Positions 4,305 through 59,295 of a stretch of DNA of 64,000 bases are shown piece after piece. Position numbers and translations under genes: made by a program. The stretch's first letter is position 1; each line of letters begins with the position of its first letter. Below the pieces are notes generated by a model. It was not told the DNA's origin, ran no database searches, and worked only from the letters and a program-made list of their open reading frames with translations. The stretch covers positions 92,690-156,689 of the forward strand of contig JBMNUM010000001.1 in NCBI GenBank assembly GCA_050946275.1, given 5' to 3'. The DNA comes from Coriobacteriales bacterium (GTDB taxonomy: Bacteria > Actinomycetota > Coriobacteriia > Coriobacteriales > CADBOM01).

Positions 4305-4306
4305 AC

Positions 4307-19640: not shown

Positions 19641-19723
19641 CGGTCATCGAATGACCGCTGATGTCATAAAAAATCATAAAATGTCATAAAAAGTTTGATT
19701 TTGGGCATCCGGTGGCCTATTAT
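19641..19723 (+). promoter_or_regulatory. Candidate dcw (Pmra) promoter with 10-bp-phased direct repeats, a possible MraZ operator.
   Basis: (G/A)TCATAAAA(A/T) appears three times with an exact 10-bp period at 19663-19692. It is preceded by the palindrome CGGTCATCGAATGACCG at 19641-19657. -35 TTGATT (19695-19700), 17-bp spacer, -10 TATTAT (19718-19723). This lies about 50 nt upstream of the mraZ GTG. Confidence 0.5.
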
Positions 19724-21182: not shown

Positions 21183-21245
21183 CACTGAACGAAACACGAG
21201 ATGCGGCTTAAACGCAGCATCAAACGCAGCAAGGACGTGTAGGAA

Positions 21246-21740: not shown

Positions 21741-21838
21741 TAGCCGCGCGCGTGCATGCATGCGCGCACGGATTGAAAACGGGGGAAGAAACGGACGCCG
21801 TCTCGCGATCATAGGAACGCAGGCGGCGATTCGATGCT

Positions 21839-23893: not shown

Positions 23894-23945
23894 AACGGGC
23901 GGGAAACCGCTGGAGTAACGTGCGAGGGAAAGCTGGTGGACTGAA

Positions 23946-25478
23946 ATGACACAGGGCAAACGGATCACGGGCGTCGCCGAGATGCTCGCCGGCATGCAGT
24001 TCGAGGCAGTGGGGGCGCACGATGTCGAGGCGACGGGGTTGGCCTACCGGTCCGACCGGGTCGAGCCCGGCGGGGTGTTCTTCTGCATCCCGGGCCTGAA
24101 GCGCGACGGGCACGACTTCGCCGCCGACGCCGTCTCGCGCGGGTGCGCGGCGCTGGTCGTCCAGCGCAAGCTCCCGCTCGATGTGCCGCAGTTCGTGGTC
24201 GCGGACTCGCGCCGCGCGCTCGCGATCGCCGCATCGCGCTTCTACGGCATGCCCTCCGAGCAGCTCGACGTGGTGGGCATCACGGGCACGAACGGCAAGA
24301 CCACGACGACGTTCCTCGTGGACTGGGCCGCGCGCTCGCGCGGGCTCAAGACGGGCCTGATCGGCACCGTCGAGACGAGGATCGGCGATGAGGCCCTCCA
24401 CGCCGACCACACGACCCCCGAGTCGCTCGACCTGCAGGCGCTGTTCGCGCAGATGGGCGAGGCCGGCTGCCAGGAGGTGACCATGGAGGTCTCGAGCCAT
24501 GCGATCGACCTGAACCGCATCCTCGGGACGCGCTTCGCCGTCGCGGCGTTCTCGAACCTCACGCAGGACCATCTCGACTACCACGAGACCATGGAGAACT
24601 ACTTCGAGGCCAAGGCCGCGCTCTTCACGCCCGAGTACACGGGCAAGGCGGCCATCTGCATCGACGACCGCTACGGCGAGAAGCTCGCCGCCCGCGCCGC
24701 CGACCTCGGCCTCGACGTCGTCACGACGGGATTCGAGCCCGCGGCCGACATCCGCGTCCTCCTGGCCAAGTACCATGCGACGCACACGGCGCTGACCATC
24801 TCGGCGTTCGGCGAGACGTACTCGTTCGACTATCCGCTCATCGGGCGCTTCAACGTCGAGAACATCGCGCTCGCGCTCGGCATCTGCCACCAGCTCGGCT
24901 ACGACCTGGGCGAGGTGTGCCATGCCATGGAGCACGCGCCGCAGGCGCCCGGGCGCATGGAGCGCGTGTCGCTGCCGGGCAAGACCGCCCGCGAGACCTA
25001 CGATGCGACGGGCATCTCCGTGTTCGTCGACTACGCGCACACACCCGACTCGATCGAGAAGGCCATCGCGGCGCTCAAGCCCATCACGTCCGGCCGCCTC
25101 ATCACCGTGTTCGGCTGCGGCGGCGACCGCGACCGCACGAAGCGCCCGAAGATGGGAGCCGCGTCGTGCGCGTCCGACCTGATGGTCGTCACGAGCGACA
25201 ATCCGCGCACGGAGGACCCCGACACCATCATCGCCGACATCCTTCCCGGCATGCGCCAGGGCACGGGCCGCTACGAGGTCATCGCCGACCGCCGCGCGGC
25301 CATCTTCCGCGCCATCGAGATGGCGGAGCCCGGCGACGGCGTGCTGATCGCCGGCAAGGGCCACGAGGATTACCAGCTCGTGGGCGACAAGGTGCTCGAC
25401 TTCGACGACCGCATCGTCGCGCGCGAGGCCCTCGAGGCGCTCGTCGCCAAGGATGGGGGTGCCGCCGATGCAGATTAG
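23946..25478 (+). CDS. murE: UDP-N-acetylmuramoyl-L-alanyl-D-glutamate--2,6-diaminopimelate ligase.
   Basis: 510 aa. GITGTNGKTTT P-loop and the DNPR motif typical of meso-DAP-adding MurE. Confidence 0.9.
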   Translation: MTQGKRITGVAEMLAGMQFEAVGAHDVEATGLAYRSDRVEPGGVFFCIPGLKRDGHDFAADAVSRGCAALVVQRKLPLDVPQFVVADSRRALAIAASRFYGMPSEQLDVVGITGTNGKTTTTFLVDWAARSRGLKTGLIGTVETRIGDEALHADHTTPESLDLQALFAQMGEAGCQEVTMEVSSHAIDLNRILGTRFAVAAFSNLTQDHLDYHETMENYFEAKAALFTPEYTGKAAICIDDRYGEKLAARAADLGLDVVTTGFEPAADIRVLLAKYHATHTALTISAFGETYSFDYPLIGRFNVENIALALGICHQLGYDLGEVCHAMEHAPQAPGRMERVSLPGKTARETYDATGISVFVDYAHTPDSIEKAIAALKPITSGRLITVFGCGGDRDRTKRPKMGAASCASDLMVVTSDNPRTEDPDTIIADILPGMRQGTGRYEVIADRRAAIFRAIEMAEPGDGVLIAGKGHEDYQLVGDKVLDFDDRIVAREALEALVAKDGGAADAD

Positions 25479-26889
25479 CCTTGCGAAGATCATCGAGGTG
25501 CTGGGGGGCGCCACCGTCGTCGCCCCGTCTCAAGCCGAGCGCGTGGTGGAGCAGATCGTGTGGGACTCGCGCGCCGTCACGGACGGATGCGCGTTCCTGG
25601 CCATCAAGGGCGAGCGCGTCGACGGCAACTCGTTCATCGGCCAGGCGCTGAGCGCCGGCGCGGCGCTCGCAATCGCCTGCGACGAGCCGGGCGAGGCGGC
25701 CTGCGAGAAGGCGCGCCTTCTCGGTGCCGGCATCGTGCGCGTCGAGGATCCCTGTGATGCGCTCAGGGCGCTCGCGGGCTACGTGCGCTCCACGCTCACG
25801 GCCACCGTCGTCGGCATCAGCGGCTCGAGCGGCAAGACCACAACGAAGAACATGATCGCCCATGTGCTCTCCGCCGAGTTCGCCACGGTCGCCACGAAGG
25901 CCAACCAGAACAACGAGCTCGGCGTCCCCGCGACGGTGCTCAACGCGTCCGAGGCCACCGAGGCGCTCGTCGTCGAGATGGGCATGCGCGGTTTCGGCCA
26001 GCTCGAGTCGCTCTGCGAGTTCGTGCGTCCCGGCATCGGCGTGCTCACGAATATCGGGACGGCCCATGCCGAGCTGCTCGGATCGCAGGAGAACATCGCC
26101 CGCGCCAAAGCCGAGCTCATCGCCGCTCTGCCTGCGGGAGGCACCGCCGTCCTCAACGGGGATGACCCCTTCACGCCGTTCGTGCGCGAGGTCGCCGGCT
26201 GCGATGAGCGCGGCGTCGATGTGCTGCTGTACGGCACGGGCGAGGAGTGCTCGGTCCGCGCGACCGACATCGAGTTCTCGCGCATCGGGCGCCCGACGTT
26301 TTCCATCACGTTCCCCAACGGGCGCAGCACGCGCGTCGAGCTGCCCCTCATGGGGATGCACAACGTCCTGAACGCGCTCGCGGCGGCCGCCGTGGGCTAT
26401 GCCTGCGACATGCCCATCGAGCGAATCGCCAACGCCCTGCGCACCGTGGAGGGCCAGAGCATGAGGCAGGAGCTCGTCGAGGCGGGTGACGGCGTCATCG
26501 TCATCAACGACGCCTACAACGCGAACCCCGATTCGATGCGGGCCGCGCTCTCGCTGCTCTCCATGATGGATGCGGGTGCGGGCCGGAAGATCGCCGTGCT
26601 CGGCGACATGGGAGAGCTCGGAGCGGACGAGGTTGCCGACCACCGCGGGGTGGGGGAGGCGGCCGCGGCGTGCGGTCCCGACCTGCTCGTCACCATCGGC
26701 GAGCTCGGCGCCCACATCGCCGCCGGTGCCGTTGACGCCGGGATGCCCGCCGACCACGTCGTCGCATGCGCCGATGTGCCGCAAGCGGTGCGCGCAATCG
26801 AGGGAGCGCGCGTGCCAGACAGTATAATCTTGGTGAAGGCCTCGCGGTTCATGGAACTCGAGCGGGTCGTCGAGGAGTTGATCGGTTAA
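25468..26889 (+). CDS. murF: UDP-N-acetylmuramoyl-tripeptide--D-alanyl-D-alanine ligase.
   Basis: Start MQISLAKIIEVLGG at ATG 25468, overlapping the murE end. P-loop GISGSSGKTTTK. Confidence 0.9.
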   Translation: MQISLAKIIEVLGGATVVAPSQAERVVEQIVWDSRAVTDGCAFLAIKGERVDGNSFIGQALSAGAALAIACDEPGEAACEKARLLGAGIVRVEDPCDALRALAGYVRSTLTATVVGISGSSGKTTTKNMIAHVLSAEFATVATKANQNNELGVPATVLNASEATEALVVEMGMRGFGQLESLCEFVRPGIGVLTNIGTAHAELLGSQENIARAKAELIAALPAGGTAVLNGDDPFTPFVREVAGCDERGVDVLLYGTGEECSVRATDIEFSRIGRPTFSITFPNGRSTRVELPLMGMHNVLNALAAAAVGYACDMPIERIANALRTVEGQSMRQELVEAGDGVIVINDAYNANPDSMRAALSLLSMMDAGAGRKIAVLGDMGELGADEVADHRGVGEAAAACGPDLLVTIGELGAHIAAGAVDAGMPADHVVACADVPQAVRAIEGARVPDSIILVKASRFMELERVVEELIG

Positions 26890-27941
26890 TGCTAGGCTCT
26901 GCCAGCTATCCCACATTCCAGGTTTTCCTGGCCATTTTCATCGCCATGGCGTTCACCATGGCGGTGCTTCCGTTCTGGATTCGCCTGCTCAAGTACGAGG
27001 GCATCGGCCAGCAGGTTCGCGCCGATGGCCCCGAGAGGCATCTGGTCAAGCAGGGAACGCCCACGATGGGCGGCGTCGTCATCCTGATCGCGGTTCTCGT
27101 CATCGTCATCCTCGTGGCGGCGTTCTCGCACAACATCGACAAGCTCGCGCTCGCCCTCGTCGTCGCGGCGACGATACTGACGGGCCTGCTCGGCTTCGTG
27201 GACGATATCACCAAGGTGCTCAAGAGCCGCTCGCTCGGCTTGAGCCCGCGTGCGAAGCTGGCCGGGCAGATCGCCATCTCGGTCATCTTCTGCCTGCTCG
27301 TCGTGAACTTCTGCGGCGTGAGCCCCGTCGTCAAGATCCCGTTCGTTGTGGACATCAACCTCGGCGTGCTCGCGATCAACATCCCCATGGGCGACGGCGT
27401 GTTCACGATCCCGTGGCTCTACGTCATCTTCGTGACGCTCCTCATGGCGGGCATGTCGAATTCCGTCAACCTCACCGATGGCCTCGATGGCCTCGCCGGC
27501 GGGTGCGTGATGATCGCCATGATCGCCATGGGCGCCATCTCGTACCGTGCCGACAACCTGGCGATGGCGATCTTCTGCGGTGCCGTGGCCGGCGGCTGCA
27601 TCGGCTTCATCTGGTTCAACACCTATCCGGCGAAGATCTTCATGGGCGACACGGGCTCGCTTGCGTTCGGCACGGCGCTCGCCGCCGTCTCCATCGTGAC
27701 GAAGTCCGAGGTCGTGGGTCTCGTGATCGGCGGCCTGTTCGTCGCCGAGTCCGTCTCGGTCCTGCTGCAAGTCATCCATTTCAAGCGGACGGGCAAGCGC
27801 ATCTTCCTCATGGCGCCGTTCCACCACCATCTCGAGAAGAAGGGCTGGTCGGAGCCGCAGGTCGTCACGCGCCTGTGGATCGTGACGGGTTTCCTCGCGT
27901 GCCTCGGCTTCGCGTGGTACTTCCCGATCGGCATGATGTAG
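26889..27941 (+). CDS. mraY: Phospho-N-acetylmuramoyl-pentapeptide transferase.
   Basis: ATG overlaps the murF TAA (TAATG). QQVRADGPERHLVKQGTPTMGG and NSVNLTDGLDGLA motifs. Polytopic membrane protein. Confidence 0.92.
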   Translation: MLGSASYPTFQVFLAIFIAMAFTMAVLPFWIRLLKYEGIGQQVRADGPERHLVKQGTPTMGGVVILIAVLVIVILVAAFSHNIDKLALALVVAATILTGLLGFVDDITKVLKSRSLGLSPRAKLAGQIAISVIFCLLVVNFCGVSPVVKIPFVVDINLGVLAINIPMGDGVFTIPWLYVIFVTLLMAGMSNSVNLTDGLDGLAGGCVMIAMIAMGAISYRADNLAMAIFCGAVAGGCIGFIWFNTYPAKIFMGDTGSLAFGTALAAVSIVTKSEVVGLVIGGLFVAESVSVLLQVIHFKRTGKRIFLMAPFHHHLEKKGWSEPQVVTRLWIVTGFLACLGFAWYFPIGMM

Positions 27942-27950
27942 GAGCATCCC

Positions 27951-29429
27951 ATGTCTAGTGGTCTGGGAAACGTCCTTGTCGTCGGGCTGGGCAAGAGCGG
28001 GCTGGCCGCCGCGCGGTTTGCCATCGCGCATCTCGGCGCCCCCGCCGATGACGCCTTCGCCGTCGAGAGCCTCACGGTCTACGGCGGCAAGTCCTCCGAT
28101 GCCGCGGTCGCGTTCGCGGCCGAGGCTGCCGAGCACGGCGTCGAGGTCATCCTCGACTGCGAGGACGTGAAGGGTTCCTACGACCTCGCCATCATCAGCC
28201 CGGGCATCTCGGTCAACAGCGGCTTCTTCCAAAGCGCCGCCGCATCCTCGCGCGAGGTCGTGACCGAGCCCGAGCTCGCGTTCCGATTCTCGCCGCGCCG
28301 TTGGATCGGCATCACGGGAACGAACGGCAAGACGACCACGACGACGCTCACGGCGCACCTTCTCGCCGAGGCCGGTGCGGGGAGCATCGCATGCGGCAAC
28401 ATCGGCCTGCCCTGCATCGAGGCGGCCTGCGCGCGCACCGACGACTCGTACCTTGTGGCCGAGCTCTCATCGTTCCAGCTCGAGTCGATGCCGACGTTCG
28501 CGCCCCGTGCGGCGATCCTGCTCAACATCACCCCCGACCACATCGAGTGGCACGGGAGCCTCGACGCCTATGCCGCGGCCAAGGAGAAGATCTTCTCCAA
28601 CCTGGGCGCGAGCGGCTACGCCATCGTCGATTGCACCGCGGAGAACACGCGTGCACTCGCCGGTCGCCTGGCCGCCCGCGGCGACGCGGTCGTCGCCATC
28701 GGCGGTCCCGACGGGTTCGGTGACGCCTACCACCCGCTCGGGGACCCTGCCGCCTGCGGGCGCGGGGGGTGCGCCTATCTGGACGGCGGCGTGCTGACCG
28801 TCGTGCTCGATGGGGCTGCGCATCGACTCGCCGCTGCCGGCGAGCTTTCCATCAAGGGCGATCACAACATGCAAAACGCGCTCGCGGCAAGCGCCGCCGC
28901 GCTCATCGCGGGCGTCGACGACGTGCAGCTTGCCGCCGGCCTGCGCTCGTACCATCCCGTCGAGCACCGGGTCGAGCCCTGCGGCGACGTGGGTGGGGTG
29001 CTCTTCTACAACGATTCGAAGGCGACGAACACCGATGCCGCCATCAAGGCCCTCACGGCGTTCCCCGGCCAGCGCGTCTGGATGCTTCTGGGCGGGCACG
29101 ACAAGGGCACGGATCTCTCCGAGCTGGTCGGCGCCTGCACGGATTCCTGCACGGGCGTCATCTGCTTCGGCGAGGCTGCGGGTCGCTTCCTCGCGGCGTT
29201 TGCGGACGCCGGCGCGGAGGCTGCGGGACTGCAGGTCATCGAGGCGCCCCACATGCGCGAGGCGTTCGCGGCGGCATGCGATGTGGCCCAGGACGGCGAC
29301 GTCGTGCTGCTCTCCCCGGCCTGCTCGTCGTTCGACGAGTTCTCCTCGTACGAGGAGCGCGGCAAGCTGTTCAAGCAGCTGGTGGCCGACCTGCGCGGCA
29401 CGGTCGCGGAGGAGGTCGTCCATGGTTGA
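27951..29429 (+). CDS. murD: UDP-N-acetylmuramoylalanine--D-glutamate ligase.
   Basis: 492 aa. GITGTNGKTTTT P-loop and NDSKATN motif. Confidence 0.9.
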   Translation: MSSGLGNVLVVGLGKSGLAAARFAIAHLGAPADDAFAVESLTVYGGKSSDAAVAFAAEAAEHGVEVILDCEDVKGSYDLAIISPGISVNSGFFQSAAASSREVVTEPELAFRFSPRRWIGITGTNGKTTTTTLTAHLLAEAGAGSIACGNIGLPCIEAACARTDDSYLVAELSSFQLESMPTFAPRAAILLNITPDHIEWHGSLDAYAAAKEKIFSNLGASGYAIVDCTAENTRALAGRLAARGDAVVAIGGPDGFGDAYHPLGDPAACGRGGCAYLDGGVLTVVLDGAAHRLAAAGELSIKGDHNMQNALAASAAALIAGVDDVQLAAGLRSYHPVEHRVEPCGDVGGVLFYNDSKATNTDAAIKALTAFPGQRVWMLLGGHDKGTDLSELVGACTDSCTGVICFGEAAGRFLAAFADAGAEAAGLQVIEAPHMREAFAAACDVAQDGDVVLLSPACSSFDEFSSYEERGKLFKQLVADLRGTVAEEVVHG

Positions 29430-30675
29430 AGAGCAGGACAAGGAGCGTAGGGCCGCACGCAGGAGCCGCGACAAGGGCCGCGGCGACATGGCCGTGCTCA
29501 CCCCGCGCCTGACCTTCATCATCTCCGTCGCGCTGCTGCTGGCGATCGGGCTCGTCATGGTGTACTCGGCATCCGCTCCCGAGGCGTACCGCGACTTCAA
29601 CGACACGGCCTACTTCCTCAAGCGCGAGGTCATCTGGGTCGCCGCGGGCGTCGTCCTGACGTTCATCGTGGCGAAACTTCCCTTCGGGTTATGGAACCGC
29701 AAGGTGCTCTGGGTGATCTGGGGCATCATGGTGGCGATCCTGATATTCAACCACATCGCGGGCTTCGTCGGTCTGGGAGCGCGCCGCTGGATCATGATCG
29801 GGCCGTTCACGTTCCAGCCCTCGGAGTTCGCCAAGATCGCGATGATGCTGCTCGCGGCGTCCATCGTCATAGGCTACCGCAACGGCGAGTTCCGCTCATT
29901 CGGGCAGTTCGCCGTCGTGTTCATCGGCAGCATCGCGATACCCACGTTCCTCATCCTGGCCCAGCCCGACCTCGGCACCGTCCTCGTCGCCCTGGTGGGC
30001 ATCCTCGCCGTCCTGTGGTTCGGCGAGTTCTCCAAGCGCATCATCGCCGCGGTGATCATCGCCGTGATCGTGCTCGCCCTTCTGGCCATCGTGTCGCAGG
30101 GATTCCGTTCCGACCGCATCGCGGCGTGGATCCATCCCGAGGACGATCCCGCGGGCACGGGCTACCAGATCCTCAACTCCTTCTACGCCTTCTCCGAGGG
30201 AGGCGTCTTCGGCGTGGGACTGGGCAACTCGACGCAGAAGTACCTGTACCTGCCCTTCGCCTACAACGACTTCATCTTCGCCGTCATCGGCGAGGAGTTC
30301 GGGCTCATCGGATGCGCCGTCATCATCGTGCTGTTCCTCGTGATGCTGCGCTCGGCGCTCCAGATTGGCGAGATGGCGTCGAGCCCCTTCGCGAAGATCA
30401 TCGCGTGCTCGTCGGCCACGGTCATCGCGTTCCAGGCCTTCTTGAACATGGCCTGCACCATCGGGGCGTTACCCGTCACGGGCAAGCCCCTGCCCTTCAT
30501 CAGCTACGGTGGCTCGTCCATGTTCGCGACGATGATCCTCGTCGGCTTCGTGCTGGCGGTCTCGTTCCAGAGCTCGGACGACACCGCGACGCGCCGCAGG
30601 AAGGACATCCGCGTGTACGAGACCGGATCGGGCGGCTCGTCGTCGTATCCATCGAGAACCAGAAGAGGTGCCTGA
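29422..30675 (+). CDS. ftsW: SEDS-family peptidoglycan glycosyltransferase FtsW.
   Basis: Start MVEEQDK at ATG 29422, overlapping the murD end. Ten predicted TM segments, with FQPSEFAKI and PFISYGGSSM motifs. Confidence 0.9.
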   Translation: MVEEQDKERRAARRSRDKGRGDMAVLTPRLTFIISVALLLAIGLVMVYSASAPEAYRDFNDTAYFLKREVIWVAAGVVLTFIVAKLPFGLWNRKVLWVIWGIMVAILIFNHIAGFVGLGARRWIMIGPFTFQPSEFAKIAMMLLAASIVIGYRNGEFRSFGQFAVVFIGSIAIPTFLILAQPDLGTVLVALVGILAVLWFGEFSKRIIAAVIIAVIVLALLAIVSQGFRSDRIAAWIHPEDDPAGTGYQILNSFYAFSEGGVFGVGLGNSTQKYLYLPFAYNDFIFAVIGEEFGLIGCAVIIVLFLVMLRSALQIGEMASSPFAKIIACSSATVIAFQAFLNMACTIGALPVTGKPLPFISYGGSSMFATMILVGFVLAVSFQSSDDTATRRRKDIRVYETGSGGSSSYPSRTRRGA

Positions 30676-30676
30676 T

Positions 30677-31822
30677 ATGAGGTTCGTCATCTCCGGCGGA
30701 GGGACCGCCGGCCACATCTACCCGGCTATCGCCGTCGGCAAGCAGCTCGCGTCCATGGGGCACGAGGTGTTCTTCGCCGGCACGCCCGAGGGTCTCGAGG
30801 CGCGCCTGGTGCCCGAGGCGGGCTTCCCGTTCGAGGCGTTCGACGTCTCGGGATTCAACCGCAGCCATCCGCTGACACTCCTGAAGTCGTCCATGAAAGC
30901 GCTCAAGGGCTCGTCGGCCGCCAAGAAGTGGCTCAAGTCCCTCGGCGCCGATGCCGTCATCGGCTTCGGCGGCTATGTGTCGATTCCCGTGGGCAAGGCC
31001 GCGGGCGACCTTGGCATCCCGCTCGTCATCCACGAGCAGAACTCCGCTTGCGGCATGGCGAACAAGTACCTTGCCCCGCATGCCGCGCATATCGCGCTGA
31101 CGTACGACGTCGCGCGCAGGGACCTGAAGACCGACGCTCCCATCGAGGTCACGGGCAATCCGGTGCGTCCCGAGCTGCTCGAGGTCGACGCGGCCTCGGC
31201 CCGCTCGAGGCTCGGCGTTCCCGACGATGCGGAGCTGCTGTTCGTGTTCGGCGGCTCGCTCGGCGCCCGCCATATCAACACGGCGATCTGCAAGCTGGCC
31301 GCGCGCCTGCTCGAGCGTCCGAACCTGCACGTCATCCATGTGACAGGGCCCAAGGAGTACGACACGGTGCGCGCCGACCTCGAGGCGCAGGGCATCGCGC
31401 TATCCGGACCGGGCTTCTCGCCGGAGACGGGTTGGGAGAACGCGGGCGAGCGCTACCACCTCACCGGCTACTTCAACAGCATGGGCGAGGCCCTGACGGC
31501 CAGCGACGCCGTCGTGTGCCGCGCCGGTGCCACGACGCTCGCGGAGCTGACGGCCATCGGCGTGCCGGCGCTCCTCGTCCCGTATCCGCATGCGACGGAC
31601 GACCATCAGACGAAGAACGCGCGGGCGCTCGTGGAATCGGGCGCATCGTTCATGTGCGCGGATGACGATGTCGAGGGAGAGGGCTTCGCCGAGATGCTCT
31701 TCACGCTGCTCGACGATGGCGCGCGCCGCGACGAGATGAGAGAATTGACGAGGAAACTCGGCCGCACGAACGCGGCGGAATTGGTCGCCAACCTGGCGAT
31801 CGACGCCGCGGCGCGCAAATGA
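30677..31822 (+). CDS. murG: UDP-N-acetylglucosamine--N-acetylmuramyl-(pentapeptide) pyrophosphoryl-undecaprenol GlcNAc transferase.
   Basis: MRFVISGGGTAGHIYPA N-terminus after SD AGAAGAGGTG. The ORF track offers GTG 30668 as an alternative start. Confidence 0.9.
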   Translation: MRFVISGGGTAGHIYPAIAVGKQLASMGHEVFFAGTPEGLEARLVPEAGFPFEAFDVSGFNRSHPLTLLKSSMKALKGSSAAKKWLKSLGADAVIGFGGYVSIPVGKAAGDLGIPLVIHEQNSACGMANKYLAPHAAHIALTYDVARRDLKTDAPIEVTGNPVRPELLEVDAASARSRLGVPDDAELLFVFGGSLGARHINTAICKLAARLLERPNLHVIHVTGPKEYDTVRADLEAQGIALSGPGFSPETGWENAGERYHLTGYFNSMGEALTASDAVVCRAGATTLAELTAIGVPALLVPYPHATDDHQTKNARALVESGASFMCADDDVEGEGFAEMLFTLLDDGARRDEMRELTRKLGRTNAAELVANLAIDAAARK

Positions 31823-31868
31823 GCCGATACCGATCATGAGCGGCTTATCGAAGGACTTACGGAGGTAG

Positions 31869-33272
31869 ATGGCGATGACGGGCGGAAACATGGACAGGAA
31901 CATAGCGAAGGTTCACTTCGTCGGCGTCGGCGGCGTTGGCATGAGCGGCATCGCGTCGGTCGCGAAGAAGCTGGGCATGCAGGTCACGGGCTCCGACTTG
32001 AAGGAGTCGAAGTACTCGAAGGCCCTCAAACGCCAGGGGATCAAGGTCTCCGTCGGACACGACGCGCGTAACATCACCGATAGCGACCCCGACGTGGTCG
32101 TCGTGTCGAGCGCCATCCCCGAGACGAACCCCGAGGTCGTCGCGGCCCGCGCGGCGGGCATCGAGATCTGGCCCCGCGCCAAGATGCTCGCGTATGTCGG
32201 CAACGGTTACAAGGTGCTGGCGGTCGCGGGAACGCACGGCAAGACGACGACCTCCTCGATGCTCTCGGCCGCGCTCGTCGAGCTGGGCGCCGACCCGGCG
32301 TTCCTCGTGGGCGGCATCATCGACGGCTTCGACTCCAACGCCCGCTACGGCGGCGGCGAGTACTGCGCCGTGGAGGCGGATGAGTCGGATGGCTCGTTCA
32401 CGTACCTCGATCCTTACATGGCCATCGTCACGAACATCGAGGCCGACCACCTCGACCATTACGGCGACCTCGAGAGCATCCGGAAGGCGTTCGCGGAGTT
32501 CGTCTCCAACATTCCCGGCGAGGGATGCGTCATCGCCTGCGGGGACAACGAGGGGCTCGTGGAGCTGATGCGCGCGTCCACGGAGGCGCCCGTGGTCTCC
32601 TACGGTATCGGCGAGGGGTGCGATGTGCGCACGGTGCCCGCCGATGATGGCTCGTTCGACATCATCGCCGCGGACGGCTCCCGCGCGACCATGCGCCTGC
32701 AGTCCAACCCCGGCGTGCACAACATGCTCAACGCCACGTCGGTCGTGGCGCTGCTCATGCGGCTCGGCTACGGCCTGGACGAGAGCGTCCGCGCCGTGGA
32801 GTCCTTCAGCGGCGTGCGGCGCAGGTTCGACCTCGTCGGCACGGCCAAGGGCGTCACGGTCATCGACGACTACGGACATCATCCGACGGAGATCAAGGCG
32901 ACGCTCGCCGCGGCCCGCAACCAGGGTGCCAAGCGCATCCACGTGCTCTTCCAGCCGCATCGCTACTCGCGCACGGCCTCGCTGGCCGACGAGTTCGCGA
33001 CCGCCTTCGACGGCGTCGACAAGGTGACGGTCATGGACGTGTACTCGGCGGGCGAGACGCCCATCCCGGGCATCACGGGCAAGACCGTCGTGGATTCGGT
33101 GCTGCGCCACGACCCTGCGATGGACATCTCGTGGGTGCAGGGACGCGCCGAGGTCGTCTCCTATCTGGCCGACTGGCTCGAGGAGGGCGACATGCTCATC
33201 ACGATGGGCGCCGGCGACGTCACCGCCATCGGCCCGATGGTCCTCGAGGCCCTCGAATCCGCAGGGGAGTAG
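31869..33272 (+). CDS. murC: UDP-N-acetylmuramate--L-alanine ligase.
   Basis: HFVGVGGVGMSGIA and AGTHGKTTTSSM motifs. 467 aa. Confidence 0.9.
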   Translation: MAMTGGNMDRNIAKVHFVGVGGVGMSGIASVAKKLGMQVTGSDLKESKYSKALKRQGIKVSVGHDARNITDSDPDVVVVSSAIPETNPEVVAARAAGIEIWPRAKMLAYVGNGYKVLAVAGTHGKTTTSSMLSAALVELGADPAFLVGGIIDGFDSNARYGGGEYCAVEADESDGSFTYLDPYMAIVTNIEADHLDHYGDLESIRKAFAEFVSNIPGEGCVIACGDNEGLVELMRASTEAPVVSYGIGEGCDVRTVPADDGSFDIIAADGSRATMRLQSNPGVHNMLNATSVVALLMRLGYGLDESVRAVESFSGVRRRFDLVGTAKGVTVIDDYGHHPTEIKATLAAARNQGAKRIHVLFQPHRYSRTASLADEFATAFDGVDKVTVMDVYSAGETPIPGITGKTVVDSVLRHDPAMDISWVQGRAEVVSYLADWLEEGDMLITMGAGDVTAIGPMVLEALESAGE

Positions 33273-36587: not shown

Positions 36588-38516
36588 CTACAAGATGTGC
36601 TTGTGGTTCTTCATCCATGAATACGTCTTCATGAAGTACGTGGTCTTGGCCTTCTTGGTCTTGGAGGCGTCCCAGGTGGTGTCGACGTAGTAGGTCTTGC
36701 CCTTGATGACGATCTTGTTCCACGCGTGCTCGTTGGCACGGCCCTTCGGCGTGGTCTTGCCCACGACGACCGTGCAGCTCAGGCCGACCTTGTTGCACAT
36801 GTCGCGGTAGAGCGTCGCGTAGCCGAGGCAGCGCGAGGACTTCTTCACGGCCGCGGCGTACGTGGTCCAGGAGAGGTCGGAGACGGGCTTGTAGTCGTAG
36901 CGGACGTTGGTGGCGATCCAATCGTGGATGTACCTCGCACGCTTGACCGGGTCCTTGATCCTCTTGGCCTTCTTGATGACGTTTTGCTGGACCTTGTTCT
37001 GCTGGGCCACCATCTTGGTGATGGTCGGCTTGTTGAAGGTGTAGCGGAAGAAGAGGCTCTTGGCCGGCGTCTGGGTCTTCGTCGTGGTGACCTTGCCCGT
37101 GACGGGGTCGATGGTCCTTCTCGTCGTCCGCAGCGCATCCGAGTAGACGAGCTTGACGTTTTGCGTGTAGCTGTCCGTGTACCTCTTGGGGGACTGCCCG
37201 CCCTGCCACAGCTGGTATGCCTTCTGGAGCGTGTCGTAGGAGAAGCAGAACCTCTCGACATCGACCCTCGCGGAGCACGCGCGGGCCACGTTGGTCATGA
37301 CCTGCACGGCCTTGTTGGGGTTGTTGTAGCGCGAGGTGACGTTGGAGAACGCGAATATCTGGGACTTGCCGCCGTTTTCGGCCCATAGCTGGACGTTGGT
37401 CTTGTTGGCGGTATTGCCGCCCTTGACGTCGATGGCCAGCTCATCGACGTCATATGCCTTGGTGTAGATGGGGACGATCTCGTAGTCCTTGCCGCTCCTC
37501 TGGATGATGAACTTCTGGGCGTTGGAGCCGTTTTGCTGGTAGAGGACGATGTTCGTGCCGTTCTTCGTGCCCGTGGCGTTGGCATGGAGGGCGAGGTTGC
37601 TCTTCATGTTGATGATCGTGTAGAGACCGCGCTCGTCGACCTTGAAATACCATGCCTGGGCATCGGAGTTGTTGGACTGGTGGATCTGGACGTTCGTGCC
37701 GTTCTTGACGCCGCCGCCGGCGGCCTCGAGCACCTTGCCCGTCGCGCAGTAGAGCCTGATGATGTAGACACCCGATTTGACGGGGGCGGCGTACACGCGC
37801 TCGGACACGTCGTATGCGGCCTGTCGCCTGGCCTCGGCTTCCGCCTCAGCCTTGGCCTTCGCCTCGGCCTCTGCGCGGGCCTTCGCCTCAGCTTCCACCC
37901 GCGCGGCCGCCTCTGCCTCTGCCCTTGCCTTCGCCTCCGCCTCCGCTGCGGCCTGAGCCTCGGCCTCGGCCGCTGCCTGCGCCTCCGCCTCGGCCAGCGC
38001 CGCCGCCTCGGCCTCGGCTGCCGCCGCGGCGTCCGCCTCGGCCTGGGCGGGATCGACCTCGCCCGCCACCTCGGCGTTCTCTGCGACGGTGTCATCGGTG
38101 CTCTGCGCCGTCTCGTCGCTGGCGGTCTGCGCATCGGCATCCTGCTGCTCGGGCACGGGCGTCTCGGCGGCCTGGCCCTCGTCAGGCGTCTCGGCGGGAG
38201 GAGTCGTCTCGGCGAGCTGGGTCTCGCCCGACGGGGTGGTCTCCGCAGGTGCCTCCGCACCTTCCTGGCTGGGCGGCCAGGGAGCGGGTTGCTGCTCGGT
38301 GGACTCGTCCTGGTCCGTGGTTCCCTCGAGATCGCCCGCGAGGGGCACGGAATCGTCCGTGATGGTGTCGGACGGCTGCTCCTGGGTGGCGCCGGGTCCG
38401 GGTGCGGGCTTCTCGGCGCTCGGAGCGCATGCGGTTGCGAGGAATGCGATATAGGCGACGCACAGGGCGGCGACGATCGCGGTGATGAGCCGTTTTCTCG
38501 TTTTAGCCCTTCTCAT
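36588..38516 (-). CDS. Predicted lipoprotein. Domains in order: disordered acidic region, Glu/Ala/Lys-rich helical repeat, ricin-type beta-trefoil lectin, transglutaminase-like domain.
   Basis: Signal peptide plus lipobox-like AFLATAC. (AEAEA[KQA]A[RA])n tract. QxW-type trefoil repeats (SDAQAWYF, SNAQKFII, GKSQIFAF). C-terminal SSRCLGYATLYRDMCNKVGL...HAWNKIVIKGKTYYVDTTWD. Confidence 0.8.
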   Translation of the reverse strand: MRRAKTRKRLITAIVAALCVAYIAFLATACAPSAEKPAPGPGATQEQPSDTITDDSVPLAGDLEGTTDQDESTEQQPAPWPPSQEGAEAPAETTPSGETQLAETTPPAETPDEGQAAETPVPEQQDADAQTASDETAQSTDDTVAENAEVAGEVDPAQAEADAAAAAEAEAAALAEAEAQAAAEAEAQAAAEAEAKARAEAEAAARVEAEAKARAEAEAKAKAEAEAEARRQAAYDVSERVYAAPVKSGVYIIRLYCATGKVLEAAGGGVKNGTNVQIHQSNNSDAQAWYFKVDERGLYTIINMKSNLALHANATGTKNGTNIVLYQQNGSNAQKFIIQRSGKDYEIVPIYTKAYDVDELAIDVKGGNTANKTNVQLWAENGGKSQIFAFSNVTSRYNNPNKAVQVMTNVARACSARVDVERFCFSYDTLQKAYQLWQGGQSPKRYTDSYTQNVKLVYSDALRTTRRTIDPVTGKVTTTKTQTPAKSLFFRYTFNKPTITKMVAQQNKVQQNVIKKAKRIKDPVKRARYIHDWIATNVRYDYKPVSDLSWTTYAAAVKKSSRCLGYATLYRDMCNKVGLSCTVVVGKTTPKGRANEHAWNKIVIKGKTYYVDTTWDASKTKKAKTTYFMKTYSWMKNHKHIL

Positions 38517-48413: not shown

Positions 48414-48768
48414 CCGGAGCGGGCCGGGCGGCCGCGCCATGGGTTGGTCCCATGGTGAGGAAAGTCCGGGCTCCACAGGGCAGGATGCCAGCTAACGGCT
48501 GGGCGGGGCGACCCGACGGAAAGTGCCACAGAAAAGGAAACTCCCCTGTACCTTCGGGTGCGGGAGAAAAGCTGAAAAGGTGCGGTAAGAGCGCACCAGC
48601 GTCGCGGTAACGCGGCGGCTTGGCAAACCCCATCCGGAGCAAGGGCAAATAGGGGTGCTATGCGCTGGCCCGGCGTGCATCCGGGTTGCCTGCTAGAGCT
48701 GTCCGGCGACGGGCAGTCGAGATAAATGACCGCACACGACAGAACCCGGCTTACAGGCCCGCTCCGGT
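48414..48768 (+). ncRNA. rnpB: RNase P RNA, bacterial type A.
   Basis: Universally conserved GAGGAAAGTCCGGGCTCCACAGGGCA and ACAGAACCCGGCTTA blocks. The 5' CCGGAGCGGGCC pairs with the 3' GGCCCGCTCCGG (P1). Confidence 0.92.
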
Positions 48769-48782
48769 TCATCATCTTCGCG

Positions 48783-49047
48783 CCTTGCTGACCGCTCCTG
48801 CGGCAGCGGCAATCAGCAAACCCGCATTTCGACCCTCAAGGTGGGGTTTGCTGACCGCGGACCGGGCAACGACAATCAGCAAACCCGCATTCCGGCCTCC
48901 CAGGTGGGGTTTGCTGACCGCTCCTGCGGCAGCGGCAATCAGCAAACCCGCATTTCGACCCTCAAAGTGGGGTTTGCTGACCGCTCCTGCGCTTCCGGCA
49001 ATCAGCAAACCCGCATTCCAGCCTCCCGGGTGGGGTTTGCTGATTGC
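48783..49047. repeat. Family-B tandem hairpin repeat array, about 4 units with a 62-63 bp period.
   Basis: Units start at 48841, 48904, 48966 and 49029 (GTGGGGTTTGCTGA...). Each contains AATCAGCAAACCCGCATT(T/C)C. The array lies between convergent rnpB and the tRNA operon. Confidence 0.88.
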
Positions 49048-49199: not shown

Positions 49200-49276
49200 T
49201 GGTAGCCCGTGCGGGATTCGAACCCGCGATCTCCGCCTTGAGAGGGCGGTGTCCTAAACCGCTAGACGAACGGGCC
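49200..49276 (-). tRNA. tRNA-Glu (anticodon CTC).
   Basis: Manual cloverleaf: GGCCCGT acceptor (G1-U72), anticodon arm CCGCC-CTCTCAA-GGCGG, T-arm GCGGG-TTCGAAT-CCCGC, encoded CCA. Confidence 0.85.
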
Positions 49277-49293
49277 ATTCACAGTTGCTCTAA

Positions 49294-49367
49294 TGGCTGG
49301 GGTGGAAGGAGTCGAACCCTCACTGACGGAACCAGAATCCGCTGTCCTACCATTAGACGACACCCCA
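49294..49367 (-). tRNA. tRNA-Gln (anticodon CTG).
   Basis: Manual cloverleaf: acceptor TGGGGTG/CACCCCA, anticodon loop TTCTGGT, T-loop TTCGACT, encoded CCA. Confidence 0.85.
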
Positions 49368-49443: not shown

Positions 49444-49488
49444 GTGTGAATTTCAAATTGACCGTTCACGAACGACGAGCGGAAACTG

Positions 49489-49696
49489 AGGGGCTTACTG
49501 ACCCCGCTTGCGGCGAGAGCAATCAGCAAACCCGCATTTCGACCTCCCAGGTGGGGTTTGCTGACCGCGTTCGGGGTCCCGGCAATCAGTAAACCCGCAT
49601 TTCGACCCCTCATGTGGGGTTTGCTGACCGCTGGGAGAGCGACTGCAGTCAGCAAACCCGCATTCCGGCCTCCCGTGTGGGGTTTGCTGATTGCGC
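49489..49696. repeat. Family-B tandem hairpin repeat array, about 3.5 units.
   Basis: The same unit as at 48783-49047. It abuts family-A copy 3, mirroring the A+B arrangement at 18970-19524. Confidence 0.85.
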
Positions 49697-49743: not shown

Positions 49744-50029
49744 TGTCCGGAAATGCGGGGATGTCGAAAACAGGGGCGCCCGTGCACGTTTCCACGGCCC
49801 GCCTGTCCCAAATTGCGGGGTTGTCGAAAGCGGATCCCTCCCGCCTGTCCGGAAATGCGGGGTTGTCGAAAAATCTTGCCCGAAAACGCGGGGATGTCGA
49901 ATAATCCGGAGCGCCCCGCTTTCGACATCCCCGCATTTTGGGACACGGGAGGGAGTTTTCCTTGCAAGGCGGGTCTGGTTTTCGACAAACCCGCAATTTC
50001 GGGCCCTCGCGTGGGGCTTGCTGATTGCG
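49744..50029. repeat. Family-A nested-palindrome element, copy 3 (inverted relative to copy 2), ending in an A/B hybrid unit.
   Basis: Four forward and two reverse half-sites. Its reverse complement aligns at about 90% identity to 18970-19227. The last unit joins TTTCGACAAACCCGCAATTTCGGG to GTGGGGCTTGCTGATTGCG. Confidence 0.85.
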
Positions 50030-50032: not shown

Positions 50033-50100
50033 GGGAAAAACGCCCCTGCGTTGGGGCGTTGTCTTTGAGGTGGCGCGCCCTGGGGTTCGAGCGCCCGGAG
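50033..50100 (-). repeat. Direct duplicate of the tRNA-Arg 3' end plus its terminator, with a decayed T-arm.
   Basis: 50033-50082 matches 50166-50220 almost base for base (apart from a 5-nt indel) across the terminator hairpin plus TGGCGCGCCCTG. The following GGGGTTCGAGCGCCCGG resembles AGGGATTCGAACCCCCGG of the tRNA, but no acceptor 5' strand is present. Confidence 0.7.
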
Positions 50101-50167: not shown

Positions 50168-50198
50168 GAAAAGAAAAACGCCCCTGCGTTGGGGCGTT
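50168..50198 (-). terminator. Rho-independent terminator of tRNA-Arg.
   Basis: The minus strand reads AACGCCCC-AACGCA-GGGGCGTT followed by TTTCTTTTCCC. Confidence 0.75.
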
Positions 50199-50208
50199 GT
50201 CTTTGAGG

Positions 50209-50285
50209 TGGCGCGCCCTGAGGGATTCGAACCCCCGGCGTTCTGATTCGTAGTCAGACCCTCTATCCAGCTGAGGTAAGGGCGC
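50209..50285 (-). tRNA. tRNA-Arg (anticodon ACG).
   Basis: Manual cloverleaf: acceptor GCGCCCT/AGGGCGC, anticodon arm TCTGA-CTACGAA-TCAGA, T-arm GGGGG-TTCGAAT-CCCTC, discriminator G, encoded CCA. Confidence 0.9.
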
Positions 50286-50326: not shown

Positions 50327-50599
50327 ATGCATTCGCCGAGCGGACGGTGACCGGTTTGCGGATCGTGCAGGGCAACGCATGACCGAGGGGCGGCTGCGCG
50401 TGCGCCGCGGCGGCTCGCAGGCCTGCTCGCAGGTCGTCCGGGCCCGACGACGCACGGTTGGGGGATGGGAGCGGCGGCTCGCATGCATGCTCGCAGGCCG
50501 CATGGGTGCGGCAAGACGCTGGCGGGGAGGGGCGAGGGTGGGTCCACCTCGACGACTCACAAGCCTGCTCGCAGGCCGCGTTCGCGCGCAGCCGGACCG

Positions 50600-56556: not shown

Positions 56557-59295
56557 ATGTCAAGCTGGAGGTCGACAGAGCTGCTGCTGATTTTGGGTGC
56601 AACCCCCGTGGTCGCGCTCATCTCCATCATGTCCATCATCACCGGTGGCAACGCGATCACGTTCGAGACGCTCGCAGTGCCGATCGGCCTGTTCCTCGCG
56701 TTCATCGCGGCGCATTTCGCCGTGTGCAGGCTGGCGCCCAACGCGGACAACGCGCTGCTGCCCATCACGTACCTGCTCTCGGGTATCGGCATCGCGTTCG
56801 TGTTCCGCCTCGCGCCCGATTTGGCCACGAACCAGCTCATATGGCTGTTCGCGGGCATCGCGCTCATGGTGCTGACGCTCGTGTTCGTGCCATCGCTCTC
56901 GGCGCTCTCGCGCTACAAGTACACGATGATGGTGTTCGGCTTGCTGCTCCTGCTGCTGCCGATCGTCGCCGGCGTGGAGATCTACGGCTCCAAGATCTGG
57001 CTGTCCATCGGCGGTTTCTCGTTCCAGCCGGGCGAGCTCGCCAAGATCCTCATCGTGCTGTTCCTCGCCGCGTACCTCGCCGAGAACCGCGAGATGCTCT
57101 CCGTGTCGTCGCGGCGCATCCTGGGCATGCAGCTGCCGGACTTCAAGACGCTGTTCCCGCTCGTGTTCATGCTCCTGGTTTCGATCGTGATCGTGGTCTT
57201 CGAGCGCGACCTCGGTAGCGCGCTGCTGTTCTTCGGCCTGTTCCTCGTGATGATCTACGTGTGCACGGGCCGCATCAGCTTCGTCGTGATCAGCCTGATC
57301 GTCGTGGGCATCGTCGGCGTGCTGCTCTACCTCTCGTTCTCGCACATCCAGGCGCGCTTCGCCGTCTGGATCGACCCGTTCGAATACGCGCAGGACACGG
57401 GATACCAGCTCGTGCAGGCGCTCTACTCCATGGCCGACGGCGGCATGTTCGGCGTCGGCATCGGCAAGGGCATGCCGACGACGATCCCCATCGTCGAGAG
57501 CGACTTCATCTTCGCGGCGTTCGCCGAGGAGATGGGCCTGCTCGGCGCCTCGGGCGTCCTGCTGCTCTTCGTGCTGTTCGCGATTCGCGGCTTCGCCACG
57601 GCGGCCCGCGCTCGTCGCGACGTCGACGCCTTCGCGGCGGTGGGCCTCACGGCGGCCATCTCGCTGCAGGCGTTCGTCATCGTCGGCGGCGTGACCGGCT
57701 TCATCCCGTTGACGGGTGTGACGTTGCCCTTCATGAGCCAGGGTGGCTCATCGCTCATCTCGAGCTTCATCATCGTGGGACTCCTGCTGCGTACCGGCGA
57801 CGACGGAACCGGCACCGCGGAGGAGCTGACGATGTTCTCGCGCAGCATGGACGGCGGAACGCTCGGCAGGCGTGCGCTCGGCAAGCGCCTCACGCGCATC
57901 CTCACCGTGTTCTGCATCCTGTTCGCGCTGCTCATCGCCAACCTCACGAACATCATGGTCGTGAGGGCCGAGGCGCTGCAGACGATGCCGTCGAACAACC
58001 ACACGCTCGCGCATCACGAGCAGATCGAGCGCGGCTCGATCACGACGGCCGACGACGTGACGCTCGCCGAGTCCGTCCTGCAAGACGACGGATTCTACGC
58101 GCGCGAGTACCCGCAGGGCGACCTCGCGCCGCAGGTGCTGGGCTACTACTCGCTGCGCTACGGCACGGCGGGCCTCGAGGCGTCGCTCGACCAGACGCTC
58201 ACCGGCAACCGCAACTTCTCGACCATCACAGGTGCTATCACATCGCTGTCGGGCGGGACGAACCCGGGCAACAGCGTGCAGCTGACCATCGACTCGCGCA
58301 TCCAGCGGGCCGCGCAGGACGCTCTGGGCGGCTACGATGGCGCGTGCGTCGTGCTCGACCCCGAGACGGGCGCCGTGCTCGGCATGGCATCCGGCCCGGA
58401 CTACGACGTCAACGAGGTCGAGGACCTGCTCGCCGGCGACGTCGAGACCGACGCGCTGTTCAACCGCGCGACGCAGGGTCTCTACTCGCCCGGTTCGACG
58501 TTCAAGACGGTGACGCTCGCCACGGCGATCGAGAACAAGATCGCGACGCTCGACACCGAGTACTACTCGCCCGGCGAGCTCGAGATCGGCGGTGGAAAGG
58601 TCACCTCGTTCGACGGCAACAACCTGGGCACCATCACGCTGCAGGAGGCGTTCGCCTACTCGAGCAACACGGTGTTCGCGCAGGTCGGCGAGGAGATTGG
58701 CGACAAGATGCTCGTCGCGGGCTCGAACGCCTTCGGCTTCGGCAAGACCGTGTCGACGGACTTCAACATCCGCGTCTCGCTCATGCCCGACCCGAACGAG
58801 ATGATCCTGTGGGAGACCGCGTGGGCGGCTGTCGGACAGCCCGTCGGCGAGCACGACAGCCCGGCGGGTCCGCAGGCGACGCCCATCCAGATGGCGATGG
58901 TCGCGGCGTGCATCGCCAACGACGGCAAGATCATGACGCCGTATCTCGTCGACAACGTGAAGAGCCCGGAGGGCGCCGTGGTGACCACGACGAAGCCGAG
59001 CGAGTTCGCGAGTCCCATCAGCGCCGAGACGGCATCGAAGGTCCGCACCGCCATGGAGGACGTGGTGGATTACGGAACCGGTACCGGTGCCTATGTCGAG
59101 GGCGCCATCGTGTACGGCAAGACCGGCACGGCCCAGACGAGCATCCACGACGACAACTCGTGGTTCATCGGCACGGCCGAGGCCGGCGGCCGCAAGGTCA
59201 CGATCGCGATCGTGCTCGAGGACTACGACGAGCCAGTGACGTTCAAGGCCGCGGATGTGTTCGAGACCTCGCTCGAGGCTTTGGGGGCTTTGTGA
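56557..59295 (+). CDS. Fused SEDS glycosyltransferase (RodA/FtsW family) and class B PBP transpeptidase (PbpA-like) in one ORF.
   Basis: 912 uninterrupted codons. Residues 1-400 are polytopic with FQPGELAKI and LPFMSQGGSS. A TM (ILTVFCILFALLIANL) follows, then a PBP dimerisation domain and transpeptidase motifs STFK, SSN and KTGTA. Confidence 0.85.
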   Translation: MSSWRSTELLLILGATPVVALISIMSIITGGNAITFETLAVPIGLFLAFIAAHFAVCRLAPNADNALLPITYLLSGIGIAFVFRLAPDLATNQLIWLFAGIALMVLTLVFVPSLSALSRYKYTMMVFGLLLLLLPIVAGVEIYGSKIWLSIGGFSFQPGELAKILIVLFLAAYLAENREMLSVSSRRILGMQLPDFKTLFPLVFMLLVSIVIVVFERDLGSALLFFGLFLVMIYVCTGRISFVVISLIVVGIVGVLLYLSFSHIQARFAVWIDPFEYAQDTGYQLVQALYSMADGGMFGVGIGKGMPTTIPIVESDFIFAAFAEEMGLLGASGVLLLFVLFAIRGFATAARARRDVDAFAAVGLTAAISLQAFVIVGGVTGFIPLTGVTLPFMSQGGSSLISSFIIVGLLLRTGDDGTGTAEELTMFSRSMDGGTLGRRALGKRLTRILTVFCILFALLIANLTNIMVVRAEALQTMPSNNHTLAHHEQIERGSITTADDVTLAESVLQDDGFYAREYPQGDLAPQVLGYYSLRYGTAGLEASLDQTLTGNRNFSTITGAITSLSGGTNPGNSVQLTIDSRIQRAAQDALGGYDGACVVLDPETGAVLGMASGPDYDVNEVEDLLAGDVETDALFNRATQGLYSPGSTFKTVTLATAIENKIATLDTEYYSPGELEIGGGKVTSFDGNNLGTITLQEAFAYSSNTVFAQVGEEIGDKMLVAGSNAFGFGKTVSTDFNIRVSLMPDPNEMILWETAWAAVGQPVGEHDSPAGPQATPIQMAMVAACIANDGKIMTPYLVDNVKSPEGAVVTTTKPSEFASPISAETASKVRTAMEDVVDYGTGTGAYVEGAIVYGKTGTAQTSIHDDNSWFIGTAEAGGRKVTIAIVLEDYDEPVTFKAADVFETSLEALGAL

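Follow-up and report, generated by a model that had tools for sequence, protein, structure and literature searches.

The window analysed here, a 64,000-nucleotide stretch of DNA from an uncultured Coriobacteriales bacterium of gut or rumen type, carries two families of intergenic repeats: a 262-bp element (family A) and tandem arrays of a 63-bp unit built from two inverted arms (family B). The two families are probably modules of one non-coding, clade-restricted mosaic repeat, non-autonomous and self-propagating in the manner of the REP, REPIN and BIME elements and with a build similar to that of the BOX elements. This interpretation is suggested by the dispersal of the copies, their confinement to intergenic DNA, their occurrence in a narrow clade and the insertion-like differences from related genomes. 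The core sequence common to both families, the constrained arms, the fixed composite architecture and the hairpin potential further suggest that the arm is the recognition site of an enzyme acting in trans. The copies found in the window are the following.

42-303, plus strand: family-A element A1, in the spacer that follows the upstream gene and precedes that of a pyruvate carboxylase subunit.
10492-10668, plus strand: family-B array 1, three 63-bp units, the first arm being GGCAATCAGCAAACCC and the last arm GTGGGGTTTGCTGA.
18968-19229, plus strand: family-A element A2, with the six-site layout, 92% complementary to A3.
19318-19524, plus strand: family-B array 2, a leading arm and three units.
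48785-49047, plus strand: family-B array 3, the region originally flagged, a truncated leading arm and four units with a 126-bp super-period.
49488-49694, plus strand: family-B array 4, a degenerate leading arm and three units.
49744-50005, minus strand: family-A element A3, with array 4 on one flank and the hybrid arm on the other.
49981-50028, plus strand: hybrid A/B junction, the outermost A half-site TTCGACAAACCCGCAATTT followed 11 nt later by the B arm GTGGGGCTTGCTGATTGC.

Tandem arrays of a 62-63-bp hairpin unit had been predicted at four loci from the letters of the sequence, and all four are present. Tandem Repeats Finder reports a period of 63 at 10491-10666 (2.8 copies), 19314-19531 (3.5 copies), 48785-49043 (4.1 copies) and 49519-49690 (2.7 copies), together with a 126-bp super-period in the third array (91% match). 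The motif TCAGCAAACCCGCATT, with up to three mismatches, occurs 23 times in the window against 0.41 expected, and GTGGGGTTTGCTGA occurs 28 times against 3.6 expected; none of 100 shuffled sequences reaches either count. The arrays comprise 13 complete units, each of exactly 63 bp and all on the plus strand, which is the presumed leading-strand sequence for four of the four arrays; since the source metagenome-assembled genome (MAG) is a short-read assembly, the unit numbers within the arrays are possibly collapsed. Independently assembled Logan contigs of this organism end inside arrays 1 and 2 (L001 inside array 1), as is expected of multi-copy repeats. Outside the arrays, an nhmmer profile built from the 13 units matches in the window only the hybrid unit and, weakly and on the opposite strand, palindromic echoes.

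The consensus of the unit, which had been described correctly, is GTGGGGTTTGCTGACCGC, 12 variable nucleotides (sp1), GGCAATCAGCAAACCCGCATT and 12 semi-variable nucleotides (sp2). The conserved arm of 15-18 nt, GCAATCAGCAAACCCGCATT, has the inverted partner GTGGGGTTTGCTGA(CC/TT)GC, and the two mutually inverted arms alternate along the array as GC(AA)TCAGCAAACCC and GGGTTTGCTGA(CC/TT)GC, with arm offsets fixed at 28 and 35 nt and with two classes of spacer. The arms depart from the consensus in 21 of 507 cells (4%) and the spacers in 107 of 312 (34%), an about eightfold difference with a Fisher p of ~1e-30, in which related units are treated as independent. No insertion or deletion is found among the 13 units of the window. 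Adjacent units are only ~80% identical, the difference being almost wholly in the spacers, while units 3a and 3c are identical at 62 of 63 positions, which indicates a recent local duplication on top of older, spacer-diverged units. The conserved bases GCATT and GTG reach past the paired stem, and the conservation acts on the sequence itself, beyond mere pairing.

The unit can pair in two registers. Pairing across sp2, of CAGCAAACCC with the GGGTTTGCTG of the next unit, gives an 11-bp core stem with a 20-nt loop; at three array ends, where the arm terminates in TTGC, the stem has 15 bp. Pairing across sp1 gives an 11-bp stem with two more pairs. Both registers are equally stable as single-stranded DNA (-13 to -17.5 kcal/mol), and the cells are paired in 87% of cases in the 15-pair sp2 register, where the 11 core pairs are nearly full, and in 96% in the sp1 register. 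The string of hairpins that had been proposed for each array therefore exists in its sp2 form, but it is not the sole pairing, the sp1 register being equivalent. Whole-array folding gives z-scores of -7.2 to -7.8 against shuffled sequences, on either strand and as RNA or DNA. Covariation is not significant in either register; two compensatory changes were found in all, both in the sp1 register, a G-C to A-U change in array 1 and a GCTGG/CCAGC change in L037, a contig from a different sample. A strand-specific tolerance of G-U pairs, taken as a sign of RNA function, was looked for as well, and the changes in the arms are without G-U bias on the plus strand. GTGG precedes the arm GGTTTGCTGA in 12 of the 13 units and falls into the loop in the other hairpin register.

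The seven A and B blocks amount to 1,663 bp, a 26% share of the intergenic DNA, which totals 6.4 kb. Of the 12 gaps that measure 150 bp or more, five contain such blocks, and the genic 90% of the window is free of them. The gene contexts that had been named (recN, rnpB, tRNA-Glu/Gln and mraZ) are all confirmed, and two of them concern RNA loci next to arrays 3 and 4.

48416-48769, plus strand: rnpB, the class A RNase P RNA (Rfam, 304 bits).
49200-49367, minus strand: operon of tRNA-Glu(CTC) and tRNA-Gln(CTG), between arrays 3 and 4.

Array 1, in sense orientation and ahead of the convergent murJ, starts 32 nt 3' of the recN stop codon. Array 3, also in sense orientation, begins ~15 nt past the 3' end of rnpB and is convergent with tRNA-Glu; given transcriptional read-through, it would form the 3' trailer of rnpB. 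No terminator was found between recN and array 1 or between rnpB and array 3, and a scan of the region revealed no promoter or terminator-like site inside the units. None of the units has a T-run after its arms, so the arrays are not intrinsic terminators. Array 2 falls between two divergent genes, that of a xer-type integrase (minus strand) and mraZ (plus strand), in their promoter region, 88 nt to the right of element A2. Upstream of the tRNA-Gln/Glu promoter (minus strand), ~45 bp from its predicted -35 box, lies array 4; it is 50 bp to the left of A3, and its strand is opposite to that of both flanking tRNA genes. The placement at operon ends suggested by the original prediction thus applies to arrays 1 and 3, which are 3' of recN and rnpB, but not to arrays 2 and 4.

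Two more hairpins are present past array 1, at 10680-10800 of the window, namely ggcaaacacgtctggcgtgtttgcc and ctgcacggaaaagggtgcctgagctgcccttttccgtgcag, the latter followed by TTTT. The ctgcacggaaaagggtgcctgagctgcccttttccgtgcag hairpin with its TTTT looks like the actual terminator, working in both directions, of the convergent recN and murJ genes; if so, array 1 would lie within the 3' untranslated region (UTR) of recN.

Family A is a defined 262-bp element with three copies in the window, which are 80-92% identical. Each copy contains six 25-nt half-sites, TTCGACA(A/T)CCCCGCATTTTGGGACA, two of them pointing leftward and the following four rightward, at spacings of 60, 44, 31, 42 and 60 nt. 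The element begins with TGT and ends with ACA, and besides its terminal inverted repeats (TIRs) of ~27 bp it has four more copies of the terminal repeat in its interior; an inverted doublet is formed by sites 2 and 3. In A1, a 60-bp internal duplication runs on to ~338. The core CAA(A/C)CCCGCATTT is common to the B arm and the A half-site, in agreement with the earlier suggestion of a motif shared by the two families. The hybrid A/B unit that had been noticed at 49977-50029 is also real. The hybrid junction recurs at 1278-1334 of L037 and in the translated repeats P0121, P0123, P0127 and P0129 described below, and the six-site layout of family A is repeated at 1046-1301 of L037.

Copies beyond the window were traced largely through proteins. 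GC-rich repeats tend to be annotated as genes, and for this reason array 3 was translated in its four open frames and the peptides were used as a protein query; one of the hits served as the query of a second search against 1.84 billion representative proteins. The searches retrieved ten spurious open reading frames (ORFs) of 147-304 amino acids, P0121-P0130, and nothing else convincing, with one weak match, P0131 (E = 4.8e-4). These ten ORFs are translation artefacts of the non-coding repeats. Eight of them are listed by JGI as "hypothetical proteins", on contigs of 24.9, 47.3, 61.8, 66.0, 117.0, 124.4 and 202.5 kb, which evidently belong to the same MAG, and one of the JGI ORFs is the window ORF 18922-19677 (minus strand); the other two are on ENA contigs from other samples. 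At least eight further loci are known in this way through peptides, spread over two ENA contigs and no fewer than six additional contigs of the MAG, while DNA was read for ~66 kb of this genome and for L037, a 2.4-kb contig.

P0128 has family-A sites only, and the other repeat ORFs carry B units together with A half-sites. Two layouts recur, A(+)-B(+) and [B(-)n-hybrid]-A(+)-B(-), so named after the order and orientation of the modules; a fixed A with tandem B is found at at least eight loci, and the arrays of the composite loci contain 2-6 units. L037 displays the second layout and, in addition, a solitary B hairpin that starts 5 nt past the stop codon of a gene. One spacer of L037 is 4 nt longer and one unit deduced from P0123 shifts the frame, so the phasing of the units is not absolute. 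P0127, judged by its peptide sequence, looks like an orthologue of the first half of P0121 from another strain: both have the same two units and the hybrid, at ~20% peptide divergence, with the differences mostly in the spacers.

The repeats are missing from the orthologous sites of relatives. In L010, L011 and L012, the RecN proteins are 79-80% identical to that of the window and the gene order is the same, and no A or B motif is found. In these three the recN-murJ spacer is 54 bp long and the xer-mraZ spacer 275 bp, the ~680-bp block of A2 and array 2 being absent from the latter in L010, and the efp-carboxylase spacer is without family A. Another relative, L028, is 97% identical to the window in rnpB and 91% in divIVA-yggU; in both L028 and L031 the sequence right after rnpB is unrelated and contains no array. 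The nhmmer searches for families A and B found none in L010-L012 or L025-L034. The flanking genes therefore do not need the arrays, and the repeats are gains in a narrow lineage. Absence from related genomes, together with a lack of effect on transcript ends, had been named at the outset as an observation that would speak against the REP/BIME-like proposal, and it is found in part, as the relatives are without repeats at the same sites; it favours selfish or recently expanded DNA over a conserved host function.

Wider searches gave a similar picture. The exact two-arm pattern matches eight single palindromes in unrelated phyla among 185,579 GTDB species genomes, none of which belongs to the family. 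A first scan of JGI metagenome contigs produced 0 matches and a second one 11 chance single 19-mers, the IMG/VR scans for B and for A produced 0 matches each, and blastn against plasmids and phages found no match. At the Rfam gathering and E-value thresholds only rnpB and the tRNAs pass, with no family for the repeats. A sub-threshold match of MIR1862 to family A (35 bits against 84) was rejected as a generic long hairpin. Full-text literature searches with the arm sequence retrieved unrelated primers only, and nothing relevant was found on REP-type repeats in Coriobacteriia.

Among the known repeat systems, BOX elements of Streptococcus pneumoniae and S. suis come closest in overall design. 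They consist of boxA, a tandem boxB array and boxC (PMC3049150). Both systems are modular intergenic mosaics of a fixed module and a variable tandem array, with predicted stem-loops, open frames on both strands that are annotated as spurious genes, no known transposase and a restriction to one lineage (PMC3049150). There is, however, no sequence similarity, and the 45-bp boxB lies inside the element, between boxA and boxC, whereas the 63-bp arrays are outside the 262-bp A, on one or both sides of it and in either orientation, and arrays 1 and 3 stand alone. Moreover, BOX has terminal inverted repeats and target-site duplications, while no duplications are seen at family A.

The REP is an imperfect palindrome of 20-40 bp with a stem of 6-13 bp, a usually short loop and, at one of its ends, a tag of four conserved bases, GTAG or CGTC (PMC3733652). 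In BIMEs, REPs follow one another in alternating orientation (PMC2817692), with a small number of linker motifs between them. The REPINs of Proteobacteria owe their mobility to RAYTs, transposases of the Y1 HUH type that act in trans and are present as single copies (PMC3116915, PMC3337134); the RAYT gene typically has the repeats on its flanks. The family-B arrays, like REP, BIME and REPIN elements, are extragenic and palindromic, with arms that alternate at regular spacing and with recurrent linker types (PMC2817692, PMC3333891). The inverted doublet of sites 2 and 3 in family A is REPIN-like. The conserved GTGG on the 5' side of one arm is reminiscent of the GTAG tag, a GTGG variant of which is documented for one GTAG family (PMC3733652). 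As with REPs and REPINs, the inheritance here appears vertical and restricted to a clade. The alternating units differ from those of BIMEs in being half-palindromes rather than complete REPs, and the host is an actinobacterium, whereas none of the retrieved REP/RAYT papers concerns Coriobacteriia. The REP/BIME-like character claimed in the original prediction is thus supported by the extragenic position, the palindromic nature, the alternating arms, the regular spacing and the restriction to one lineage, but the stabiliser or insulator role attached to it fits only two of the four arrays.

Family A, in turn, resembles the miniature inverted-repeat transposable elements (MITEs) and the TIR families linked to tyrosine transposases (TIRYT "TIRtrons") in being small (262 bp) and non-coding and in having ~27-bp TIRs of the TGT...ACA type, and TIR families in dimers or clusters have been described (PMC3733652). 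The GGGGWSAS motif carried by the TIRYT repeats is not present in family A. No autonomous parent or related sequence of family A was found in plasmids, phages or IMG/VR, and with neither a target-site duplication nor a parent insertion sequence family A is not a MITE. Its asymmetric arrangement of two plus four sites is similar to the ends of Tn7/Mu-type transposons, as if these had been fused into a miniature element.

In the proposed mechanism, the arm with its core CAA(A/C)CCCGCATTT would be recognised by a transposase or recombinase that is specific for this sequence and has its gene elsewhere in the genome. On single-stranded DNA the enzyme might read the arm as a hairpin, on duplex DNA as a terminal inverted repeat, and it would place copies in intergenic DNA, often beside existing copies. 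The arrays could then grow and shrink by whole 63-bp units through slippage or unequal exchange. Where an array lies within a transcript, as after recN and rnpB, the RNA may fold into the same hairpins, which could protect its 3' end as a side effect; a role of arrays 1 and 3 as 3'-end RNA stabilisers is plausible as such a secondary effect only.

Several observations weigh against a self-propagating mosaic repeat. No target-site duplication is found at any of the three A copies, and there is no clear target motif at the arrays. Among the window ORFs scanned with Pfam, there is no transposase, RAYT, other candidate enzyme or cas gene; the ORFs lying from 2529 to 8812 and from 20223 to 33272 were read solely through synteny with L010. 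No pair of empty and filled sites that would mark a recent transposition was found within one species. Unlike a true REP, the single arm is not a palindrome, and the hairpin, at 43-50 nt with a stem of 11-15 bp and a loop of 13-20 nt, is too large, so the units are not REPs in the strict sense. The p-value for the arm-spacer difference is overstated, since the units are related and were treated as independent, and the conserved arms would fit a protein-binding function for the host equally well.

There are other explanations of the same data. The arrays could serve the host as RNA elements, a co-transcribed string of hairpins that blocks 3'-to-5' exonucleases or insulates transcription units, but this is unlikely. 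Arrays 1 and 3 do lie in sense orientation 32 and ~15 nt past recN and rnpB with no terminator between, the solitary unit of L037 starts just past a stop codon, and the z-score of the array RNA fold is -7.6; REP and BOX elements are reported to act in this way in 3' UTRs (PMC3049150; bioRxiv 10.64898/2026.03.23.713779). On the other hand, no plus-strand unit has its 3' end at array 2 or array 4, and array 4 is antisense to the tRNA genes. With only two of the four arrays at the 3' ends of transcription units, transcript stabilisation cannot be the general explanation. In addition, close relatives do without arrays after rnpB and recN, covariation is not significant, the sequence and not just the pairing is conserved, there is no G-U bias, and the linkage with family A has no RNA rationale. 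It is also rather improbable that the arrays are platforms for a host DNA-binding protein of the nucleoid-structuring, gyrase/IHF or partition-like type, which would bind the inverted arms on duplex DNA. Such a role is in line with the conservation of the arm sequence while the spacers drift, with the constant period (13 of 13 units at 63 bp), which is about six helical turns and would align the sites along one face of the helix, with conserved GCATT and GTG reaching past the stem, and with the several proteins that are bound by REPs and BIMEs (PMC2817692). Nevertheless, close relatives with the full set of neighbouring housekeeping genes have no arrays, no candidate for the binding protein was found, the A half-sites that share the core are not phased (60, 44, 31, 42 and 60 nt), and the phasing in the arrays is not absolute.

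There is little to recommend plain minisatellites (variable number tandem repeats), that is, neutral local tandem duplications devoid of sequence-specific function or mobility. The units are indeed arranged head-to-tail and equal in length, 3a and 3c are nearly identical, and the period is a multiple of 3, as in the mycobacterial MIRUs. These MIRUs are direct tandem repeats of 40-100 bp, of a length that is a multiple of 3, which are intergenic in operons, overlap the stop and start codons of the flanking genes and are not built from inverted arms. They share with the present repeats an actinobacterial host, but array 1 begins 32 nt past the recN stop codon, and the arrays are palindromic and tied to a second family. 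The unit is moreover dispersed over at least ten loci, neighbouring units differ by ~20%, mostly in the spacers, the A architecture and the hybrid junction recur, and P0121 and P0127 keep their unit number despite ~20% peptide divergence. A degenerate CRISPR array or a protein-coding repeat is hardly credible. The 63-bp period does fall within the CRISPR range, two frames are open on each strand, and JGI annotates hypothetical proteins; a CRISPR array, in which identical direct repeats alternate with unique spacers of ~26-72 nt, usually near cas genes, was nonetheless rejected given spacers of 12 nt that are interrelated and of two alternating classes, inverted arms and no cas genes among the ORFs scanned, and a coding repeat given ORFs that cross the rnpB flanks, the A elements and both strands and have no Pfam domain and no homologue beyond the repeat itself. 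A link to the adjacent xer-type integrase was considered too and discarded, as this gene is conserved in L010, which is free of repeats.

A more far-reaching version of the self-propagating mosaic is doubtful. The A/B mosaic may be the cis-acting DNA of a system for transposition or recombination in Coriobacteriia, as yet undescribed and possibly domesticated; alternatively, the phased arrays may be platforms for a chromosome-structuring protein. As part of a transposition or recombination system, a single dedicated enzyme would recognise the shared core and maintain both the six-site element and the phased arrays. If true, this would be the first persistent partnership of repeat and enzyme of the REPIN/RAYT kind described in Actinomycetota. 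Proteobacteria and streptococci are well-studied hosts of small palindromic repeats in intergenic DNA, and no report was found for Coriobacteriia; a partner enzyme found in a complete genome would provide a test of REPIN/RAYT-like partnerships outside Proteobacteria. In practical terms, the repeats fragment short-read assemblies, give rise to "hypothetical proteins" in databases (P0121-P0130) and put long structured trailers after rnpB and recN.

The window has a G+C content of 65.8%, and all of its scanned genes are housekeeping genes: carboxylase subunits, nusB, dxs, a tlyA-type methyltransferase, NAD kinase, recN, murJ, the xer-type integrase, mraZ with the dcw cluster, ftsZ, sepF, yggT, divIVA, yggU, rnpB, tRNA-Glu/Gln, tRNA-Arg, terC, tRNA-Leu and a pknB-fhaA-PP2C-rodA-PBP cluster.

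Other repeats of the window are distinct from the two families. A 51-nt direct repeat at 50035-50085 and 50173-50223, 98% identical between its copies, corresponds to the terminator hairpin of tRNA-Arg and the 3' end of tRNA-Arg, and the 87 bp between the copies hold a tRNA-like 3' fragment (GGGTTCGAGCGCCC). This repeat, beside the A/B mosaic, has the look of a scar of att type or of a partial tRNA duplication that has decayed. Three imperfect copies of ~52 nt, ending in GGCTCGCAGGCCTGCTCGCAGG(T/C)CG and 64 and 78 nt apart, are found at 50385-50578, in the gap that separates the tRNA-Arg promoter from the 3' end of terC, and represent a third, unrelated local repeat. Just upstream of mraZ, at 19664-19692, there is a triple direct repeat of (T)GTCATAAAA with a period of ~10 nt, which is kept at 18808-18838 of L010 and probably serves the mraZ-dcw operon as operator or promoter region.

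Two coding regions also deserve mention. A single ORF of 912 amino acids at 56557-59295 (plus strand) contains a SEDS domain (FtsW/RodA) and a penicillin-binding transpeptidase domain and looks like a RodA-PBP fusion within the pknB-fhaA-PP2C cluster. The ORF at 36588-38516 (minus strand), which encodes a protein with ricin-lectin and transglutaminase domains, includes at 37825-38048 a 224-bp repeat based on the hexamer GCCTCG, also with periods of 18, 24 and 48 nt, which presumably encodes a low-complexity linker.

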